A stretch of 41,232 bases of DNA, from IMG/VR virus record IMGVR_UViG_2877263951_000005. One strand, given 5' to 3'. Below the pieces are notes generated by a model, which had not been told where the DNA came from, searched no databases, and was given only the letters and a program-made list of their open reading frames with translations. The DNA is from a virus (Duplodnaviria; Heunggongvirae; Uroviricota; Caudoviricetes). The position numbers and the translations under genes were made by a program. This document shows positions 5,903 through 22,061 of the stretch, in pieces (position 1 is the stretch's first letter; each line of letters opens with the position of its first letter).

Positions 5903-6048
5903 GTTGCGTGCTGAATACGCAGGGTGAAAAATAACCATATATTTGATTATATACACAACAAAAAATAAAAGTCATTGTACTTGCACATTAAACAATCAAA
6001 TATACGGCGTGAAATAAATATTTATCAGATTAATATTTTTGTCTCTAT

Positions 6049-7748: not shown

Positions 7749-8038
7749 TGGTGGATTTACGTAAAGCGGCGCGGGGGCAGATGTGCACCGTCAGAATTCC
7801 TGGCTACTGCAATCACAATCCCGAAACTTCTGTGCTGGCGCATTACAGGCTGGCGGGGACGTGCGGAACAGCGACAAAACCACACGATATGCAGGCAGCG
7901 ATTGCCTGTAGCTCATGCCACGATTTAATCGACGGGCGGGTAAAAACCAGCGATTACACCAAAGAAGAATTACGCCTGATGCATGCAGAAGGTGTTTTTC
8001 GCACACAAGAAATCTGGAGAAAGGAAGGTTATTTATGA
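7748..8038 (+). CDS. YbcO-like protein (DUF1364, putative nuclease)
   Basis: MVDLRKAARGQMCTVRIPGYCNHNPETSVLAHYRL...IACSSCHDLIDGR is collinear with E. coli DLP12 YbcO (96 aa). Confidence 0.8.
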   Translation: MVDLRKAARGQMCTVRIPGYCNHNPETSVLAHYRLAGTCGTATKPHDMQAAIACSSCHDLIDGRVKTSDYTKEELRLMHAEGVFRTQEIWRKEGYL

Positions 8039-8589
8039 TTTACCCAACAAATACAGGCAAAAGCGGGGAACACCTTCGTCTCACCACGCTGGAAAGTGTC
8101 TGGATTCAGGGAAAACTGCGCATGTGGGGGCGCTGGTCGTATATTGGCGGCGGTAAGACGGGAAATATGTTTAACCAGTTGCTGGCATCCAAAAAATTGA
8201 CGAAAACAGCCGTCAATGAAGCCCTGCGCAGGATGAAAAAAGCGGGAATAGAGAAACCTGAGCTGGAAGCGTTTTTGCGAGAGATGATCAATGGCAAGCA
8301 AAAGACCTGGCTGGCGCATTGTACTGATGCAGAGGCGTTATGTATTGATAGAGTCATAAGTGAGGTGCTGGCAGAGCATCCTGGATTGATTAGTGTCCTC
8401 CGGCAACGGTATGAAGGGCGGGGGATGACTAAGCGTAAAATGGCTGAATTGCTGAATGACGCACACCCTGAGTGGTGTTTCCGGACGTGCTGCAGTCGGG
8501 TAGATGTATGGCTAAATCTTGCTGAATATATGCTCTATCTACCGATGCGTGATGCATTCTCTTCCGGGGATCTAAAAACCGTTTGTTGA
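8035..8589 (+). CDS. Putative late-gene antiterminator Q-like protein (DUF1133-type)
   Basis: 184 aa starting MIYPTNTGKSGEHL (atga overlap with the ybcO-like stop). It is the last gene before a consensus-like promoter plus terminator pair. Identification rests partly on position. Confidence 0.5.
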   Translation: MIYPTNTGKSGEHLRLTTLESVWIQGKLRMWGRWSYIGGGKTGNMFNQLLASKKLTKTAVNEALRRMKKAGIEKPELEAFLREMINGKQKTWLAHCTDAEALCIDRVISEVLAEHPGLISVLRQRYEGRGMTKRKMAELLNDAHPEWCFRTCCSRVDVWLNLAEYMLYLPMRDAFSSGDLKTVC

Positions 8590-9314: not shown

Positions 9315-10133
9315 ATGTGTCAGGTATTTGGTGTATCCAGGAGCGGTTATTACAACTGGGTACAGCATGAACCCTCAGACAGAAAACAAAGTGATGAGCG
9401 GCTAAAACTGGAGATTAAGGTGGCACATATCCGCACTCGCGAAACATATGGAACCCGGCGGCTCCAGACGGAGCTGGCAGAGAATGGCATCATCGTTGGT
9501 CGTGACCGACTGGCACGTCTTCGTAAGGAGCTGAGGCTACGCTGTAAGCAGAAACGCAAGTTCAGAGCGACTACGAACCCGAACCACAATCTGCCAGTTG
9601 CGCCAAATCTGCTGAACCAGACGTTCGCTCCTACAGCACCAAATCAGGTCTGGGTGGCGGACCTGACGTATGTTGCCACACAGGAGGGATGGTTGTACCT
9701 CGCTGGCATCAAAGATGTTTATACGTGTGAAATTGTCGGCTACGCCATGGGAGAGCGCATGACAAAAGAGCTGACAGGTAAAGCCCTGTTTATGGCGCTC
9801 AGGAGCCAGCGCCCACCTGCCGGGCTAATCCACCACTCTGATCGAGGTTCACAGTACTGCGCATACGATTACCGGGTCATACAGGAGCAGTCTGGTCTGA
9901 AAACATCAATGTCGCGTAAAGGTAACTGTTACGACAACGCTCCGATGGAAAGCTTCTGGGGAACGCTGAAAAATGAGAGCCTGAGCCACTATCGTTTTAA
10001 TAACCGGGATGAAGCCATCTCAGTAATACGGGAATACATTGAGATTTTCTACAATCGTCAGCGTCGTCACTCTCGTCTGGGGAATATCTCCCCGGCAGCC
10101 TTCAGGGAAAAATATCATCAGATGGCTGCTTAA
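9315..10133 (+). CDS. IS600 OrfB (DDE transposase frame; OrfAB via -1 frameshift at A7G)
   Basis: 272-aa ORF with HHSDRGSQY and NCYDNAPMESFW motifs. Confidence 0.9.
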   Translation: MCQVFGVSRSGYYNWVQHEPSDRKQSDERLKLEIKVAHIRTRETYGTRRLQTELAENGIIVGRDRLARLRKELRLRCKQKRKFRATTNPNHNLPVAPNLLNQTFAPTAPNQVWVADLTYVATQEGWLYLAGIKDVYTCEIVGYAMGERMTKELTGKALFMALRSQRPPAGLIHHSDRGSQYCAYDYRVIQEQSGLKTSMSRKGNCYDNAPMESFWGTLKNESLSHYRFNNRDEAISVIREYIEIFYNRQRRHSRLGNISPAAFREKYHQMAA

Positions 10134-10782
10134 AAAAAGAACAAATGGTAGTGTCCGCTATTGCCAGTACACCTCACAGATTCCTGTTATTACCACCGAA
10201 CTTTTGGCGCAGCTTTACGGCACTGAGCCGGTGCGTATTCGCCAGAATCATCATGAGAACAAAGTACGCTTCGTTGAAGGGAAACACTTTTTCAAAGTTG
10301 TTGGTAATGACCTTAAAGAATTGCGGGTCGCTTTAAACTACTCACAAAATCCAGTTTCACCCAAAGCCCGCTCCCTCATCCTCTGGACAGAACGAGGCGC
10401 AGCACGCCACGGCAAAATGCTCGAAACCGATCAGGCGTGGGATGTGTTCGAAAAACTGGAAGACTGCTATTTCAGTCAAAGGGATCCGTCAACGCCAGTT
10501 TCATGCCAGAAAAGTTACGACACGCGAGTTCTCTGTTATCAGAGAGGCGGTGTCACTGTTTCCACAATTCAGTTACGGGATGATGATATTGTTATTTCCC
10601 TTGAGTCATGGCTGGAACTGGCGAGAGCCAATGGTTGGTTTGTTGTTCGCAGAGATAAACTGGTGGAAAGGTTGATGCAGCTTTAAAAAAGTTCTTGCAT
10701 TTTTGCACATAAACTGCTTCAATTCCGGTAAGCTTCGCAAAGCTGTATCGCGAGGCGAATAGCAGACATGGACACTTGAAAG

Positions 10783-10894: not shown

Positions 10895-10971
10895 GGCCCT
10901 TTAGCTCAGTTGGTCAGAGCGAGCGACTCATAATCGCCAGGTCGCTGGTTCAAGTCCAGCAAGGGCCACCA
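10895..10971 (+). tRNA. tRNA with CAU anticodon (ileX/ileZ-like tRNA-Ile2, or Met)
   Basis: 77 nt, ggcccttt...ctcataa...ttcaagtccagcaagggccacca. Very similar to E. coli ileX as I recall it. Confidence 0.85.
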
Positions 10972-10972
10972 A

Positions 10973-11049
10973 CCACCACTAGCTCATCCGGATAGAGCAT
11001 CAACCTTCTAAGTTGACGGTGCGAGGTTCGAGTCCTCGGTGGTGGGCCA
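10973..11049 (+). tRNA. tRNA-Arg (UCU)
   Basis: 77 nt with anticodon loop cttctaa, T-arm cgagg-ttcgagt-cctcg, and acceptor ccaccac/gtggtgg (C1-G72). Confidence 0.8.
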
Positions 11050-11051
11050 GC

Positions 11052-11127
<76 letters not shown>

Positions 11128-11130
11128 TAT

Positions 11131-11205
<75 letters not shown>

Positions 11206-12924: not shown

Positions 12925-13011
12925 AGGAGACCATAGTCTAGGATGACACTTACTACAGACCTGTGTGGTCATGTTTTTGACTCATAGTTTTCTCTACTTG
13001 TCAAGGATAAT

Positions 13012-13034
13012 TAATACGACTCACTATAGGGAGA
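13012..13034 (+). promoter_or_regulatory. Phage T7 class III consensus promoter (23/23), +1 = G13029
   Basis: taatacgactcactatagggaga is an exact match to the T7 RNAP consensus from -17 to +6. The flanks do not resemble the common vector contexts I know. Confidence 0.85.
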
Positions 13035-13231
13035 AGGGACACAAAAAGTTTTCTCTTCTAGGACAACTAACCGTAACTTATCGCATCCTTTCAGGGGCGG
13101 GATGACCAATTACAGACACCAAGCGTTCTACTTAAAGTGAATGCTTCCTGTGTGCTCTGGGTCAGTCGATAAGTGAATAGCAATAAGACACAATCATCTT
13201 AATTATGGTCTCTAGTCCCTACAGGGGCTTA

Positions 13232-13371
13232 ACTTAAAGTTAACTTAAAGACACAATTAAAGATTAACTTATAGTATTACTTAAAGTTAACTTAAAGACA
13301 CAATTAGAGATTAACTTTAAGTATTAAATAAAAGATTTAATTAAAGACCAATTAAAGATTAACTCTAAGGG
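13232..13371 (+). repeat. AT-rich tandem repeat, 47-bp unit x ~2.9, built of cttaaag/attaaag words
   Basis: 13232-13278 and 13279-13325 are 44/47 identical. A degenerate third copy runs to ~13371. Confidence 0.9.
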
Positions 13372-13421
13372 AATACCTTAAGGGGTGATGATATTTATAA
13401 TAATCAATCACCAAACCTATA

Positions 13422-13492
13422 GGTCTTCTCTAGGGTCTCTCTATAGGTCTTCTCTATGGTCTCTCTATAGGTCTCTCTAGGGTCTCCTCTAG
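13422..13492 (+). repeat. Iteron array: 6 tandem 11-12-nt units ggtct(t)ctcta(t/g)
   Basis: ggtcttctcta gggtctctctata ggtcttctctat ggtctctctata ggtctctctag ggtctcctctag. Confidence 0.9.
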
Positions 13493-13512
13493 GCATTACC
13501 CCCAGAAGCTAA

Positions 13513-13552
13513 CTCTATGGCCCTCTATGGTCCTCTATGGTCCTCTATGGCC
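13513..13552 (+). repeat. 4 tandem 10-nt units ctctatgg(c/t)c
   Basis: ctctatggcc ctctatggtc ctctatggtc ctctatggcc. Confidence 0.9.
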
Positions 13553-13600
13553 CTGTACGTCATTCTTTAGGATGCCCTGTAGTTTCGTATAGCCTGATGC

Positions 13601-13646
13601 CTAGAGAGACCCTAGAGAGACCCTAGAGTGGCTCCTAGAGAGACCC
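13601..13646 (+). repeat. Inverted iteron array: ctagagagacc x3 plus one degenerate copy
   Basis: ctagagagacc is the exact reverse complement of the ggtctctctag unit at 13470-13480. A further inverted copy, ctagaggagacc, overlaps the integrase stop codon at 12921-12932. Confidence 0.9.
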
Positions 13647-13807
13647 TCCCAGTAGCTCCGCACAGCTACATCGTCATCATCATAGTATTCAATCTCAAAG
13701 TCATTCTGTTTGCATCCTGTTGTCCTGCTGGTCTCCCTTCGCTTGGGGACTTTGAGTAGGTCAGTGGGGGTGCGACTTCAGGGTGCAAACAAAAAGGAAA
13801 TCAAGCG

Positions 13808-13990
13808 ATGTCTCAACAACCACAACAACCACAACAACCACAACAACCACAACAACCACAACAAGAAATCAGCATCATTAACCTCGACCAGCTTGTGTCC
13901 ATGACCTCAGTTGAAATTGCTGAGCTGACAGGCAAGGAGCACCGAAATGTCCTTCGTGATATTCGTAAGATGCTCGAAGAACTTAACGCG
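13808..13990 (+). pseudogene. Rha-family (Phage_pRha-like) regulatory protein, N-terminal 61 codons only, cut by IS1
   Basis: MSQ(QPQ)n...MTSVEIAELTGKEHRNVLRDIRKMLEELNA, then an IS1 end at 13991. RBS aaggaaa is upstream. Confidence 0.65.
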
Positions 13991-14045
13991 GGTAATGCTG
14001 CCAACTTACTGATTTAGTGTATGATGGTGATTTTAAGGTGCTTGC

Positions 14046-14321
14046 GTGGCTTCCATTTCCATCAGATGTCCTTCCTGCTCCGCTACTGAAGGCGTGGTGC
14101 GTAACGGCAAAAGCACTGCCGGACATCAGCGCTATCTCTGCTCTCATTGCCGTAAAACATGGCAACTACAGTTCACTTACACCGCCTCTCAGCCCGGTAC
14201 GCACCAGAAAATCATTGATATGGCCATGAATGGCGTCGGATGTCGCGCCAGCGCACGCATTATGGGCGTTGGCCTCAACACGGTTTTACGTCACTTAAAA
14301 AACTCAGGCCGCAGTCGGTAA
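14046..14321 (+). CDS. insA: IS1 InsA
   Basis: Identical 91-aa InsA. Confidence 0.95.
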
Positions 14322-14743
14322 CCTCGCGCATACAACCGGGCAGTGATGTGATTGTCTGCGCTGAAATGGACGAACATTGGGGCTACGTCGGTGCTAAATC
14401 ACGTCAGCGCTGGCTGTTTTACGCGTATGACAGGATACGGAGGACGGTTGTGGCGCACGTCTTCGGTGAACGCACTCTGGCCACACTGGAGCGTCTTCTG
14501 AGCCTGCTGTCGGCCTTTGAGGTCGTGGTATGGATGACGGATGGCTGGCCGCTGTATGAATCACGCCTGAAGGGAAAGCTGCACGTTATCAGCAAGCGTT
14601 ACACTCAGCGCATTGAGCGACATAATCTGAATCTGAGACAACATCTGGCAAGGCTGGTACGGAAGTCACTGTCGTTCTCAAAATCGGTGGAGCTGCATGA
14701 CAAGGTCATCGGGCATTATCTGAACATAAAACACTATCAGTAA
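14240..14743 (+). CDS. insB: IS1 InsB' frame
   Basis: 167 aa. This copy has MSRQRTHYG where the others have MSRQCTHYG. Confidence 0.9.
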
Positions 14744-14758
14744 GTTGGAGTCATTACC

Positions 14759-16083: not shown

Positions 16084-16628
16084 ATGTTGCATTTAAAAAA
16101 TATTACTACGGGTAATCCGAAAACAGCAGAACAATATCAGATGACAAAACGATATTCGGTCACCTGGCTTTTTTCAGAAGACGGAAAAAACTGGTATGAA
16201 GAGCTGAAGAATTTCGCCAGGACACAATTAAAATAACTTACACCGGAGACGGTCGCGTGGTGTGGGTCGGTAAGGATGTGACAGGCATTGAACCCCGTAA
16301 CGCCAGTGTTATTGAAGTTCCTGATATTACCGCCAACCGCCGCATTACCGCGCCGGGTTACTGGTTTTACCGCAATGATGAATTTGTCTTTGACTACAGA
16401 CTCAAAGCGGAAGATGAGCGTGATGCCCTTCTGGCTCAGGTCAGTGCCCGGACAGGGGAATGGGAAGAAGACCTGTTGCTGGGGCTAATCAGCGACGAAG
16501 ACCGGGAAAAACTGAAAGCGTACCGCATTTACGCGAAATCGCTGCAGGCGATGGATTTCAGTGTCATCACTGATAAAACCTCATACAACGCCATTGAATG
16601 GCCCGCTTCTCCGGAAATTTCTTCCTGA
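16084..16628 (+). pseudogene. Tail-fibre assembly protein (Tfa/TfaE-like), frameshifted
   Basis: [44 protein letters not shown]... stops at 16234-16236. It continues in another frame as ...[37 protein letters not shown]... A 1-nt loss near 16210 is inferred. Confidence 0.75.
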
Positions 16629-16651: not shown

Positions 16652-17837
16652 ATGTCTGTAGTGATATCAGGTGCGCTGACTGATGGCGCAGGTATCTCCA
16701 TGTCCGGATACCATATTATTCTGAAATCCCGGGTAAACACCCCGGAAGTGGTGATGCACACTGTTGCTGATGTGATGACAGGAAACGATGGTGAATACTG
16801 TTTCCATGCGCGGACTGGAAAATATGGTGTGTATCTGAAACAGGACTGGCACAACGAGTACAACGTTGGCGACATTGCTGTATATGAGGACTCAAAGCCC
16901 GGTACGCTGAATGACTTTCTGATTGCTCCTGATGAGGGCGACCTGAAACCAGATGTCGTCAAACGCTTTGAGGAAATGGTGGCGCAGGCGCAGCAGAGCA
17001 GGCCAAAAATGACATTGATGCTGCGCTGACCGGCACTCTGAAAACGGCTAACCATCTGTCTGAAATCGCAGCAGCAGGCGAAAAGGCACAACAGAAGTCC
17101 CGGGATAATCTGGGGCTGAAAAGTGCGGCCACGATGGAAGCACAGAGCGACATTTACGACCGGACAAAAGGCCGTCTGGCGATACCCGGCGCATTCGGCT
17201 TTGGGTGTGCTTTTCTGCCTGAAGATGTTATCCGTTTTGACACTAAGAGTGATTTCCTGGCCTGGGTAAGGAATGCGCTGCCAGGTGAATATTCCGTTGC
17301 TGGCCCCTACGGCATCATCATACCCGACACACGGTTTGAAGGGGTGCTCAGCATCCGGTGGACTGATGCACGCCCTGAGACAACAGAACCGCGGTACAGA
17401 GCCAAATCCCTTACTTTTTACGGCATTAACGGCCCCATTTATCACACCCGCTACCGCTACTGGCCCATATCCAGACTGACTGGGTGAAAATAAATATAAC
17501 CACAGAAGATATTATTTACAGAATCGTGGCGAGCTCTGTCCGCAACAGATGGGGAGACCCTGACATTGGCGGGCTGATTATTGCTGCGTACCAGGGAGAA
17601 GCTGACGGTGATAAAGTCATCAGACTTGTCAGGGGGCAGTCATACAGAGGCTCACGACTGGGACCGGTGGGGATTTCAGTGCCCAGTACTCCCACCGGAA
17701 CGTATATAGCATCCCCACAATTTTTCATTACGGGATGTTCAGAGCATTCATTACCGGGGTCATATTGCGCCCTGTCCGGGGTGCCGGATGCTCATGTCTC
17801 TGGCGCAATGCCCGGGCTTTTTATTCGCACATCGTGA
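16652..17837 (+). pseudogene. Side tail-fibre protein (lambda Stf-like N-terminus), at least two frameshifts
   Basis: MSVVISGALTDGAGISMSGYHIILKSRVNT...VYEDSKPGTLNDFL matches the prophage tail-fibre N-terminal domain. The frame breaks near 17027 and at 17485, and three consecutive ORF pieces cover the span. Confidence 0.7.
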
Positions 17838-18611: not shown

Positions 18612-19469
18612 CTAATTGGGTGATAACAGATCCTGTGTATGGGCGTTTCCCTTTGTGCGTGCGTTGATGCTGGTAACGGTAAACGTCATGATGAACACGA
18701 CCGCGAATAAGACGACAATCGTCGGAGCTGGTGCGCTGTCGATAAAAAAGGACAGCCAGACACCAGTCATTGACACTATTACCGATATGCCAGTCGCCAG
18801 TAGGAGCGCAATATGAAAGCGTTGTGTCAGGAGTACTGCAATGGCGCCAGGCGCAATGAGCAGAGAAATAGAGAGAATGATACCTACTGCTTTCAGCGTC
18901 GCCACAATGGTCAGGGAAACCATGCACAGCAGCCCATAATGCAGCCATCTCGTATGCAAACCGCTTACCTGCGCCTGTTGATAATCAAAGCTGAACAGCA
19001 AAAAATCCCGCCATTTTACGCTAATAACAAGTGTAACCAGCCCGGCAATAATCACCGTCTGGATTATATCGCCGATGGTTATCCCGAGCATGTCGCCGAA
19101 AAGAATATGGTCAAGATGTACGTCTGGTTTAATTGCAATATACAAGATCAGACCTGCGGCAAACATGCCAGAAAAAACAATCCCCATAACTGTATCTTGC
19201 TTGATTCGGCTGTTGTCTTTCAGGTATCCCGTCGCCACCGCGCAGAATACTCCGGCGACGAATGCCCCTGTAGCCAGAGGTAACCCCAGAATCCAGGTAA
19301 GCACGATGCCAGGAAAAACCGCATGACTCATCGCGTCACCCATCAGTGCCCAACCTTTCAGGACCAGAAAGACCGACAGCAGCGCACAGGGTATGGAAAC
19401 TACCAGTGAAATCAGCAGTGCGTGACTCATAAAGGTGAACTGCAGTGGCTCCAGTAATAATGCCATCAT
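18612..19469 (-). CDS. sitD: SitD, Mn/Fe ABC transporter permease
   Basis: 285-aa polytopic ABC-3 permease, last gene of the four-gene operon, with 4-nt overlap with sitC. Confidence 0.9.
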   Translation of the reverse strand: MMALLLEPLQFTFMSHALLISLVVSIPCALLSVFLVLKGWALMGDAMSHAVFPGIVLTWILGLPLATGAFVAGVFCAVATGYLKDNSRIKQDTVMGIVFSGMFAAGLILYIAIKPDVHLDHILFGDMLGITIGDIIQTVIIAGLVTLVISVKWRDFLLFSFDYQQAQVSGLHTRWLHYGLLCMVSLTIVATLKAVGIILSISLLIAPGAIAVLLTQRFHIALLLATGISVIVSMTGVWLSFFIDSAPAPTIVVLFAVVFIMTFTVTSINARTKGNAHTQDLLSPN

Positions 19470-20323
19470 GAGCGATCCTCCAGCGCTTTATGCGCACGCC
19501 GACGATTTGCCAAAAGTCCATGGGTGGGCGCAAATACAAATGCTAAAAGAAACAGCAGTGTCTGCGCCACCACGATGATTCCACCTGTCGCGCCGTCCAG
19601 AAAGTAACTGACCCACGCGCCGAGGAAACTGGTTACACTGCCAATAGTTACAGCAATTATGAGCAGGCGGGGAAAACGATCGGTTAACAACCATGCTGTT
19701 GCACCGGGAGTCACCACCAGACAGATCACCAGAAAGGCACCAACCGTTTGCAGCGCCGCAACGGTCGAAACCGACAGCAGGGTGAAGAAGAGGATTTTTA
19801 ATCTGCCCGGATGTAATCCAATAGCACGGGCGTGATTCTCGTCGAAAAAGGTCACCATAAGATCTTTCCATTTGAAAAAAAGCACGATGATCGAGAGAAT
19901 GCCAATGATAGTGAGTTGCAGGATATCCGCCGGATCGATTGCCAGAATATTGCCCAGGACGATGGTCTGAATGTTCACGGATGTCGGGTTCAATGACACC
20001 ATAAACAGCCCCAGGCCAAAAAAGGACGAGAAGATCAGGCCGATGATGGCATCTTCTTTTAAGCGGGTGCGTTGGTTAAGAAACAGCATGCTGCCCGCTG
20101 CCAGTCCGCCGGAAAAGAAGGCTCCCAGAGAAAACGGAAGCCCCAGCATATATGCCCCCGCAACACCCGGGACAATAGAGTGCGACAGCGCATCGCCAAT
20201 CAGCGACCAGCCTTTTAGCATCAGATAGCATGACAGGAAAGCGCAGAGACCGCCGACCATTGCCGAGACCCACATCGCATTGAGCATATATTCATAGCTG
20301 AAGGGTTCCAGTAGCACGTTCAT
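19466..20323 (-). CDS. sitC: SitC, Mn/Fe ABC transporter permease
   Basis: 285-aa ABC-3 permease paralogous to SitD. Confidence 0.9.
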
Positions 20324-21147
20324 CTTGCTTCCCTCTGCACCGCTGACGGTCGATGTGCCACAAAAGGGCGTTCATCGTCAGTAATAATGCTTTCTTCCGA
20401 GCCGTTAAGTGTGACATGGCGCAGTACGCCGCTAAAAGCCAGCTCCAGGTTCTCGGCTGTAAAAGTGGTGTCTGTCGGCCCGCTTGCCAGGACGGTGCCT
20501 TTGACCATGACCGTATAATCGCAAAATGTCGTGACTGAGCCGAGATTGTGCGTTGAGACAAGCATCGTTTTGCCTTCCGCGCGTAACTCCCTCAACAGGC
20601 TGATGATTTTCGCTTCGGTTTTCACATCAACGCCGGTAAAAGGTTCATCCAGCAGGATCACATCACCCTGCTGTGCAATTGCTCTCGCCAGAAAGACGCG
20701 TTTCTTTTGTCCACCGGAAAGCTCGCCGATTTGACGATGGCGAAAATCCACCATATCGACACGTTCCAGCGCATCGGTGACAATCTGACGATCCCTCTTT
20801 TTGGCTATACGCAACATACCCATATGCCCATAGCGGCCCATCATCACCACATCTTCCACCAGTACAGGAAATGACCAGTCAACCTCTTCTGACTGAGGGA
20901 CGTAGGCAACCAGGTTTTTCTGTAGCGCCTGTCGCGTGGGAATACCCAGAACAGATATCTTTCCGCTGGTCAGACGCACAAATCCCATAATCGCTTTAAA
21001 CAACGTCGATTTTCCGGAACCGTTTACCCCAACCAGAGCGGCAATAGATCCACTTGGTACTGTGAAGGATGCATCGCGCAGTGCTGTGTGCCCGTTACGC
21101 CAGGTGACAGTAACATCATTAACGACAATGCCTGCAGATTGCATCAT
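20320..21147 (-). CDS. sitB: SitB, ABC transporter ATP-binding protein
   Basis: Walker [10 protein letters not shown], signature LSGGQKKR, Walker B ILLDEPF. Confidence 0.92.
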
Positions 21148-22061
21148 TATTTCTCCCTTTTCCCGGCTTTAATTCCCTGTACCAGCGTACTGGTAGTAAC
21201 CTTAAGAAGGTCGATATACGTAGGTACCGGGCCGTTTTCTGTGCTCAGGGAATCGACATAGAGCACACCGCCGTAGTGTGCGCCGGTTTCACGCGCAACC
21301 TGACGCGCTGGTTTATCGGAAATCGTACTCTCGCTAAAGACTGCCGGGATATGATTTTTCTTAACTATATCAACAACCTTACGTACCTGCTGCGGTGTTC
21401 CTTGTTGATCGGCATTAATCGGCCACAGATAAAGCTCTTTTAGCCCCAAATCGCGTGCGAGATAAGAAAAAGCCCCTTCACTGGTGACCATCCATCGCTG
21501 ATTCTCAGGGAGTTCCGTAATCTGCTTACGCAGGGGGGCAAGGGTTTGGGTAATCTTGGCTTTATAAGTATCGGCATTACGTTGGTAGGTTTGTGCATTT
21601 GCCGGATCGTATTTTATCAACGCATCACGAATATTATCGACGTAAATCAGAGCATTATCTGGCGACATCCATGCATGGGGATTAGGTTTGCCCTCATAGG
21701 GTCCTTCGGTGATCCCTACTGGCGTCACACCCGAAGAGACAATTACTTCTGGAACCCCATTGAGATGCTGGTAAAAGCGTTGGAACCACAATTCCAGATT
21801 CATACCATTGGCGAGAATCAGTTGTGCCCCCTGCGCACGTTTAATATCGCCAGGGGTAGGCTGATACTCATGAATTTCTGCACCAGGCTTGGTTATGGAT
21901 GAGACTTCTGCAGCATCTCCAGCCACGTTTTTGGCCATATCCGCGATGATGGTAAATGTTGTAATGACCTTGAATTTTTCAGTTGCACTTGCCTGAAATG
22001 CGATCGAGCAGGTGAGGGCGAGGCACCCCAAGAGCATGGTTACTTTTTTTATTGAGTGCAT
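21147..22061 (-). CDS. sitA: SitA, periplasmic Mn/Fe-binding protein
   Basis: 304 aa with a signal peptide and a cluster-9 (PsaA/MntC-type) SBP. It is the first gene of the operon. Confidence 0.92.

Follow-up and report, generated by a model that had tools for sequence, protein, structure and literature searches.

How does a perfect promoter for the RNA polymerase (RNAP) of bacteriophage T7 come to lie in a stretch of DNA that encodes no such polymerase? The question is raised by the IMG/VR virus record IMGVR_UViG_2877263951_000005, a 41,232-nucleotide sequence assigned to Caudoviricetes and referred to here as the window, in which the sequence TAATACGACTCACTATAGGGAGA follows the gene of a tyrosine recombinase (integrase). 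A preliminary description of this DNA, made from its letters alone, had interpreted the site as a T7 class III promoter residing in a bacterial chromosome and reserving whatever lies downstream for a polymerase brought in by a phage. The comparisons reported here indicate that the promoter is almost certainly a natural control element of a family of small integrative islands, and that transcription of these islands is very probably gated by a phage RNAP. As a whole, we consider it probable that the islands are phage-RNAP-gated mobile elements, most likely satellites (“hitchers”) of virulent T7-like phages.

The site agrees with the T7 consensus at all 23 positions, from −17 to +6, with +1 at G13029, exactly as first described, and is identical to six promoters of T7 itself (phi6.5, 9, 10, 13, 17, and phiOR; NC_001604). 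It is the sole match in the window even when three mismatches are allowed, and dinucleotide-preserving shuffles of the window (n = 100) contain no match at all, which excludes a chance match and bears out the earlier statement that the site was not to be expected by chance. Taken together with its flanks, the promoter finds its best match in the T7 genome at phiOR (42 nt, 86% identity, E = 7e-8). It starts 88 nt past the integrase stop, as had been claimed, the last base of the integrase reading frame being 12924. The statement that the window contains no single-subunit RNAP has also held: the longest open reading frame (ORF) comprises 571 aa, and a tblastn search with T7 RNAP returned only noise (E > 1). 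That the promoter resides in a bacterial chromosome is confirmed by the presence of the exact integrase sequence in records of Shigella flexneri, where the same protein is annotated. The flanks, which had not looked like those of a vector, are indeed natural, since promoter and flanks are kept after the same integrase in natural E. coli isolates, where they are found in chromosomes only.

The non-coding region that separates the integrase from the next gene (883 bp, 12925–13807) had been described as free of ORFs of 60 aa or more. This is mostly so, except that a 64-aa ORF with a TTG start (13710–13904, a mechanical call) begins inside it. The BLASTN comparison proposed for the region gave matches to natural E. 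coli chromosomes, and among phage records only the promoters matched. The region was found in 210 of 5426 complete E. coli genomes (~4%), always in chromosomes and never in plasmids. The close relatives of the integrase, promoter, and repeats lie in natural E. coli chromosomes at tRNA-Gly (glyU, beside the ETT2 region).

The number of promoters is variable among these relatives. The perfect promoter stands in the same flanks once in E. coli NCTC10973 (locus L001; the loci compared are numbered in this way), twice, 119 bp apart, in E. coli 21AR0133 (L002), and in three tandem units of ~120 bp in L024 and L028. Three further contigs of the S. flexneri type carry the window’s locus with 99.4–99.8% identity and with the same IS1 and IS600 copies; they have one or three promoter units, and the lengths of their repeat arrays differ. 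The promoter unit (12937–13063 in the window, 5586–5850 in L024, 11739–11990 in L028) thus shows a behavior like that of a variable-number tandem repeat, being present in one, two, or three copies. The single unit of the window may be an assembly collapse. In the 4.2-kb island of L001, a second, divergent promoter-like site, CAATACGACTTACTAATATGAGA (17541–17565), lies past the repeat region and before the KilA-N gene, and could represent either a decayed promoter or one of other specificity.

The family is by no means confined to E. coli and Shigella. A search with the integrase has yielded 20 loci, which belong to Klebsiella, Lonsdalea, Rouxiella, Pectobacterium, Morganella, Enterobacter, Citrobacter, Buttiauxella, Shimwellia, Kluyvera, Proteus, Serratia, Edaphovirga, E. 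coli, and Shigella, and integrase orthologues with 65–87% identity adjoin tRNA-Gly in 20 Enterobacterales genomes. The islands have a canonical order: the integrase gene, an optional gene for a ~215-aa DUF4145 protein, ~1 kb of non-coding DNA, a variable Rha/KilA-N/Ant-like gene, and then the genes for a ~65-aa protein, a 136–163-aa DUF6971-type protein, and a 330–400-aa protein, followed by attR. T7-group promoters, from one to five, are present in 20 of the 22 relatives L001–L022, all on the integrase strand; the remaining two are uninformative, as one contig (L005, no promoter seen) ends ~950 bp past the integrase and the other (L021) within it.

The promoters of the relatives differ in the specificity region (−17 to −8), and in several islands pairs of promoters of two specificities, 27 bp apart, are found at two places, before the AT-rich block and before the first gene. 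The island of K. pneumoniae ATCC 13883 (L003) bears two copies of AATTAGGGCACACTATAGGGAGA, one T7-type promoter, and one copy of AATTAGGTAGCACTATAGGGAGA. Both AATTAGGGCACACTATAGGGAGA and AATTAGGTAGCACTATAGGGAGA are identical, at 26 of 26 positions, to promoters of Klebsiella phages (annotated promoters of K11, KP32, and K5; a second Klebsiella phage group with Whistle and HALO_ER43), and 66 of the 67 phage hits obtained with the Klebsiella island are Klebsiella phages. At the same time, no RNAP gene is encoded in any island examined, and the att-bounded islands contain no capsid, portal, terminase, or other recognisable structural gene. Host-matched promoter arrays of several specificities without a polymerase gene are a strong comparative argument for phage polymerases as the enzymes meant to read them. 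It is evident from these comparisons that the family inserts at the 3′ ends of tRNA-Gly genes by means of its tyrosine integrase, and that the promoter type tracks the phages of the host. As to the earlier idea that everything downstream of the promoter is wired to an absent phage polymerase, the host-matched promoters and the lack of an island RNAP speak in its favor for the family, but in the window itself the module has been destroyed by IS1 and attR is missing.

The ends of the islands have been located by their att repeats. The L001 island, a unit of 4,182 bp, has at its borders a direct repeat of 23 bp that corresponds to the 3′ end of tRNA-Gly, and ten other relatives, of 5.5–7.6 kb, are bounded likewise; across all 11 att-bounded relatives, the repeats measure 17–31 bp and the islands 4.2–7.6 kb. 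At the family level, these are integrated elements with an integrase and att sites and without most virion genes, i.e., they are satellite-like in the sense of PICI, PICMI, and PLE. The relatives sit at tRNA-Gly(CCC), and the window copy is found at tRNA-Gly(TCC) instead of the usual chromosomal glyU (CCC). Similarity to the glyU-associated islands begins within tRNA-Gly, at ~11162, and the empty site is available in E. coli VL40, which has the same tRNA cluster without the island. Only the attL core is retained in the window (Table 1): a second att copy (attR) was not found anywhere in it, the right part of the island having been lost to IS1 and later rearrangement.

Two side observations concern the integration sites. 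The tRNA cluster of the window (10895–11205) is of the prophage type and consists of Met/Ile-CAT, Arg-TCT, Thr-TGT, and Gly-TCC genes spaced by 1–3 nt, while the last gene of this cluster in other E. coli strains is that of tRNA-Val or tRNA-Gly. In Morganella psychrotolerans (L009, 7856–13420), two islands or island ends are arranged in tandem: the left end of the island recurs after an attR core, and repeats of 55 nt and 32 nt are found at a spacing of 5,492 bp.

Table 1. Coordinates of the island features in the window and of the PD-T7-4/RAZR genes in related loci.
Feature	Position	Strand	Basis or remark
tRNA-Gly(TCC), integration target, last of the tRNA cluster	11131–11205	+	ARAGORN
attL core = tRNA-Gly 3′ end	11183–11205		3 mismatches vs. 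family att repeat
Tyrosine recombinase (integrase), 534 aa	11320–12924	+	Pfam Phage_integrase E = 1e-17, DUF6538; PHROG integrase E = 1.5e-45
T7 class III consensus promoter (−17 to +6)	13012–13034	+	TAATACGACTCACTATAGGGAGA, +1 = G13029
Conserved block	13070–13185	+	hairpin CATCC-TTTCAGGGGC-GGGATG (13083–13105); GGTCAGTCGATAAGTGAATAGC (~13160–13185)
AT-rich block with TTAACTTAAAG-type (CTTAAAG-type) repeats	13229–13412	+	array 13229–13364, 78% A+T; TRF periods 11, 23, 47
AT-rich palindrome GGTGAT...ATCACC	13384–13412	+	ends the AT-rich block
Short tandem repeats, iteron-like	13417–13647		CTATAGGTCTCT x6 (13417–13491), CTCTATGGCC x4 (13513–13554), inverted CCTAGAGAGAC x4 (13600–13647); TRF
Conserved structured leader	13694–13807	+	directly 5′ of the first gene; AGGA at 13795, ATG at 13808
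Leader helix A	13694–13702 / 13748–13756	+	hand-drawn pairing
Leader helix B	13707–13719 / 13779–13791	+	contiguous stem
Rha-family N-terminal stump, first ~60 codons	13808–13989 (ORF to 14017)	+	Phage_pRha positions 1–31 of 91, E = 8e-10
IS1, cuts the Rha gene at 13990	13990–14758		Pfam DDE_Tnp_IS1; 769-bp unit mapped by self-similarity in L028
PD-T7-4/RAZR loci	L003 9624–10256; L009 9559–10200; L010, L011, L012 ~9610–10275; L035 1765–2418		

The non-coding DNA on the 3′ side of the promoter is organized in much the same way in different genera, where five features recur: a hairpin block, an AT-rich array with a palindrome, short tandem repeats, often a second promoter set, and a structured leader. 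The hairpin block of the window is also present in L001 and L002 of E. coli, in L003 of Klebsiella, and in L009 of Morganella, and has diverged in L020 of Proteus. The RNA starting at 13029 does not in itself have a significant structure (z = −1.7). It was stated earlier that the promoter faces repeat arrays and a Rha-like ORF; this is supported by the arrays delimited with TRF and by the Phage_pRha match, although the Rha ORF has turned out to be a stump cut by IS1.

This arrangement brings to mind the replication origins of T7, whose primary origin functions with two T7 promoters followed by AT-rich DNA. As in the T7 origins (phi1.1A/phi1.1B and the secondary phiOL and phiOR), a promoter, sometimes tandem, is followed in the islands by AT-rich DNA, which likewise has CTTAAAG/ACTTTAAG-type words and primase-type sites; unlike the T7 origins, the AT-rich block of the islands is ~200 nt away from the promoter rather than directly after it. 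The best non-promoter matches of the array in the T7 genome are the AT-rich DNA after phi1.1B (5912–5995) and that after phiOL. The pentamers GGGTC, TGGTC, and GTGTC, which we take to be the recognition sites of T7 primase, occur 21 times (as [GT]GGTC or GTGTC) in 12925–13807 vs. 4.2 ± 1.9 in dinucleotide shuffles, and the enrichment has z of at least 2.9 in 12 of 17 islands, with a 3–5x over-representation. They are over-represented because the units of the short tandem repeats are built around these motifs. In the window, pentamers of the primase type are on the + strand at 13417–13560 and on the − strand at 13600–13647. The AT-rich, primase-motif-rich block is a candidate T7-type origin or unwinding region, the chances for and against being about equal.

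Directly in front of the first gene, the islands have a leader of ~100 nt with long covarying stems and a possible pseudoknot, which is kept while the downstream gene varies (Rha, KilA-N, or other). The leaders of 14 islands were aligned, and stems were then searched for sequence by sequence. Helix B is present in all 14 leaders as a contiguous stem of 9–19 bp, vs. 6.1 ± 1.4 in shuffles, and is formed by at least five different stem sequences, e.g., TTTGCATCCTG/CAGGGTGCAAA, TATGTCTCCT/AGGAGACATA, and TATGTGACGCC/GGCGTCACATA; the inner stem of the leader has 10–12 bp. The upstream strand of the leader pairs into the enclosed loop (CTCAAAGTC/GACTTTGAG; CACAAAGTC/GACTTTGTG; AACCAG/CTGGTT). RNAalifold, when applied to the aligned leaders, favored a nested fold of another kind that shows little covariation instead of reproducing the hand-drawn helices, and neither the leader nor the island RNA has a match in Rfam. 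The leader is a real element, which possibly serves as a processing site or as a translational control element.

The proteins encoded by the islands are mostly unfamiliar, with one important exception. The DUF4145 gene matches the PADLOC model of PD-T7-4 end to end (E = 1e-102 in L011), and in many islands it is located between the integrase and the phage promoters, overlapping the integrase stop. PD-T7-4 originates from a selection for T7 resistance and, according to Vassallo et al. (PMC9519451), “often overlaps an integrase gene”; under its present name, RAZR, it is described as an RNase that phage ring proteins activate (PMC13017515). The island family is the mobile element behind this remark and accounts for where the RAZR/PD-T7-4 defence gene resides in genomes. 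The island of the window does not contain PD-T7-4/RAZR: here, the integrase is directly followed by non-coding DNA.

As for the other products, the ~65-aa, DUF6971-like, and 330-aa proteins have no match in Pfam (DUF6971 itself aside), PHROGs, PADLOC, or NCBIfam, and no PHROG family of T7-like phages is matched by the conserved island proteins. A structural model of the DUF6971-like protein (pLDDT 70) has a sole match, the uncharacterised Shigella protein SF216 (5EUR). The large protein has no sequence match in the PDB, and a profile search among 1.84 billion representatives has revealed 62 relatives, some of which end in Big_2 or He_PIG Ig-like domains. These domains match the PHROG families “structural protein with Ig domain”, major-tail, and Hoc-like, and the Ig-tailed relatives sit in the same type of integrase island, beside a DUF6971-like gene. 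The large protein, whose family members have 330–520 aa, may thus be virion-exposed, as hinted at by its Ig-tailed relatives.

Through the large protein, more distant islands have been reached, in which the same pattern of promoters is seen. One of them, L038, has three copies of TTAATTCCTACCACTATAGGGAGAC. Another, L037 (Logan SRR18106139, 59% G+C), is of the same architecture and has AAAAACCCTCACT motifs along with repeated TAAAAACCCCCACT and AAAAACCCTCACTACAAGAC; these motifs resemble the promoter consensus of Pseudomonas phage gh-1. The high-GC host of L037, together with its motifs, suggests that the family extends beyond Enterobacterales. L038 (Logan ERR5982074, 430–10986) is at least 11 kb long and comprises genes for an integrase, a ParE-like protein, an HNH endonuclease, a DUF6971 protein, and a 527-aa Ig-tailed homologue of the large protein. 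Its T7-type promoters precede one gene block after another, which gives it the look of a T7 genome in miniature.

How might such an island work? The module behind the promoter would be silent until the cell is infected by a phage of the T7 group, which supplies an RNA polymerase of its own. This polymerase would transcribe the AT-rich, primase-site-rich stretch laid out like the T7 origins, whereupon the phage machinery could copy the island. It would also express the downstream genes, i.e., those for the Rha/KilA-N-type DNA-binding protein and for the ~65-aa, DUF6971, and 330–400-aa proteins. The parts of this scheme are of unequal strength. Gating by the phage RNAP is, as mentioned above, very probable; for phage-dependent replication from the AT-rich region, we see an even chance, and for packaging and transfer as a true satellite, an even chance at best. 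The scheme in its complete form, in which the helper RNAP is the induction signal, the promoter arrays set the helper range, the origin is of the T7 type, the island contributes a virion-exposed protein of its own, and many members employ RAZR against the helper, is proposed only tentatively.

A number of results weigh against the satellite interpretation. When three islands (those of the window, Klebsiella L003, and Proteus L020) were compared with 50,697 phage records by megablast and blastn, only the promoters matched. T7 needs the pause signal ATCTGTT at its concatemer junction, and a search of the DNA behind the promoters did not reveal this class II signal in any of the islands. The idea that the islands imitate the pac site or concatemer junction of T7 was rejected: the phage searches matched promoters only, sensitive blastn against T7 gave weak AT-rich matches, and ATCTGTT was lacking. 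Similarity to the genome ends of T7-group phages was not detected either, though with packaging signals as short and ill-defined as those of the T7 type such an absence is not decisive. Circular contigs of unit length were not detected, the candidates being chromosomal fragments without terminal overlap, and the attP-junction pattern had no match in IMG/VR and the JGI metagenomes. An attP-like junction would not in itself prove excision, since tandem islands such as those of L009 would mimic attP. No excisionase, replication, or packaging protein was recognised in the islands with Pfam, PHROGs, PADLOC, and NCBIfam. AlphaFold gave no usable model of the 329-aa protein (pLDDT 37), and hhalign revealed no similarity of the large protein to the T7 capsid and scaffold proteins gp10 and gp9. 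The matches of the AT-rich array to the T7 genome, albeit recurring in three islands, are weak (E about 0.01–0.1), and base composition is a confounder here because the T7 stretches matched are also the most AT-rich ones of T7. Finally, the enrichment in primase motifs is inflated by the tandem repeats, in which the motifs are non-independent, and is absent in 4 of 17 islands.

Some of these results would be accommodated by another explanation, namely that the islands are phage-triggered defence or abortive-infection elements whose gated genes harm the phage or the cell and which spread by other means and are never packaged. Many members do carry RAZR/PD-T7-4, a proven anti-T7 gene; neither pac-like or concatemer-junction-like sequences nor packaging, capsid, or replication genes were detected, and no episomal or virome evidence was found. 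However, RAZR is not a gated gene, since it overlaps the integrase and thus precedes the phage promoters, and the genes that are gated match no PADLOC model. Moreover, the integrase, intact att sites, tiny size, occurrence in at least 13 genera, and host-matched promoters imply frequent horizontal transfer, which is not easy for a non-mobilised element of 4–7 kb, and the origin-like AT-rich block and the repeat arrays would serve no evident purpose if the island were a switch of expression and nothing else. We therefore regard a purely defensive island as unlikely, though it is the rival that retains some weight.

Far less probable is that the islands are remnants of a temperate T7-like prophage that formerly encoded a polymerase and structural proteins. 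T7-like prophages with an integrase are known from other bacteria, the promoter of the window with its flanks resembles T7 phiOR, and L038 has, besides its HNH endonuclease gene, a precomputed Pfam tag of the T7 gp0.4 family (Phage_T7_GP04). This tag was not reproduced in our own Pfam scan, though, and a decayed prophage is difficult to reconcile with intact att-bounded units of 4.2–7.6 kb that keep the same order in many genera and have no RNAP, capsid, portal, or terminase gene, or with conserved proteins that lack a PHROG match to T7-like phages. Vector or assembly contamination, suggested by the identity of the 23-mer with the promoter of laboratory vectors, can be dismissed along with a chance match as extremely improbable: the shuffles gave no match, the flanks are not those of a vector, the surrounding 40 nt or more recur behind this integrase in natural isolates of independent origin (NCTC strains among them) and in the three sister contigs, and other genera have variant promoters at the corresponding position.

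The reading of the islands as phage-RNAP-gated mobile elements has a precedent, as the family was already described in 2006 by Chen and Schneider (Nucleic Acids Res 34:1133–1147, PMID 16493139). They reportedly found 12 clusters of tandem T7-like promoters in the genomes of nine enteropathogens. The clusters are reported to lie in prophage-like islands of 4–13 kb with an upstream tyrosine integrase, 17–24-bp terminal direct repeats, and no RNAP gene, which, by the same account, were put forward as satellite phages that depend on a T7-like RNAP for their activation. The island of the window belongs to this family, and its kind has, therefore, already been published. Like the islands of Chen and Schneider, it has an integrase upstream in the same orientation, a T7-group promoter, and no cognate RNAP; unlike them, there is only one promoter unit in the window copy, against three in sister loci, and both attR and the downstream genes are missing owing to IS1. 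Of the two to five small phage-related genes expected behind the promoters, it retains only the 60-codon Rha stump, whereas the relatives have the full set. A 2020 review cites Chen and Schneider in the part that deals with the sit pathogenicity island, which fits the position of the window copy beside sitABCD. Later experimental follow-up of these islands was not found in a literature search, and the family is missing from the satellite papers that the search returned, in none of which the phrase “T7-like promoters” appears.

Comparison with established satellites would place the family among chromosomal islands that are silent until a specific helper infects and that have anti-phage functions, such as PLE of Vibrio cholerae, PICI, and P4. 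The latter sense helper proteins (anti-repressors; PexA-type and Cox/Ogr-type activators) and encode replication or packaging factors of their own. In contrast to them, the proposed sensor of the T7-promoter islands is promoter specificity for the RNA polymerase of the helper. Another parallel is PICMI (phage-inducible chromosomal minimalist islands) of Vibrionaceae, which are likewise very small integrase islands with minimal genes and without capsid-remodelling genes, and which depend on virulent helper phages (PMC10803314), as is proposed for the T7-promoter islands. Their proteins and hosts are unrelated, however, and PICMI are not reported to have helper-RNAP promoters; in addition, the packaging of PICMI as concatemers has been demonstrated, whereas that of the T7-promoter islands is a proposal.

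Relative to the earlier work, the present analysis apparently adds, as leads, the host-matched identities of the promoters, the link to RAZR cargo, the origin/primase anatomy, the leader, the Ig-domain relatives, and the reach beyond Enterobacterales. Putative origin mimicry, promoter arrays as a possible code of helper range, RAZR as cargo, the leader, and a putative virion protein are, as far as we can tell, new. If the proposed scheme is true, the islands would be minimal parasites of strictly virulent T7-like phages, widespread in Enterobacterales, with an unusual way of sensing a helper, through promoter specificity for the phage’s own RNA polymerase. The family is of relevance wherever T7-like phages are used therapeutically against E. 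coli, Shigella, or Klebsiella, and wherever T7 RNAP is expressed in natural isolates.

For the window itself, the message is more modest: its promoter is a real island relic, neither contamination nor a new discovery. The island copy is a decayed, truncated relic in S. flexneri beside sitABCD. On the 3′ side of the promoter, ~960 nt of non-coding DNA and the Rha stump have remained, and nothing more of the module. The full-length Rha homologue of L002 has 234 aa. At the start of the Rha ORF of the window, there is a perfect CAACAACCA repeat (5.7 copies, 13814–13864, TRF), which encodes (Gln-Gln-Pro)n and is absent from the L002 homologue. Past IS1, the sequence is outside the island and contains IS600-type elements, lambdoid tail-fibre remnants, and sitABCD. 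The window as a whole is dense in IS elements, with several copies of IS1 and at least four elements of the IS600 type (pairs of 100-aa and 272-aa ORFs at ~8977, 14846, 28176, and 39544), which is consistent with the unstable sit island of Shigella. IS elements surround sitABCD (18612–22061, − strand) and the remnants of a lambdoid prophage; the latter include an antiterminator Q-like gene (7915–8589) and tail-fibre assembly genes (16257–16628).

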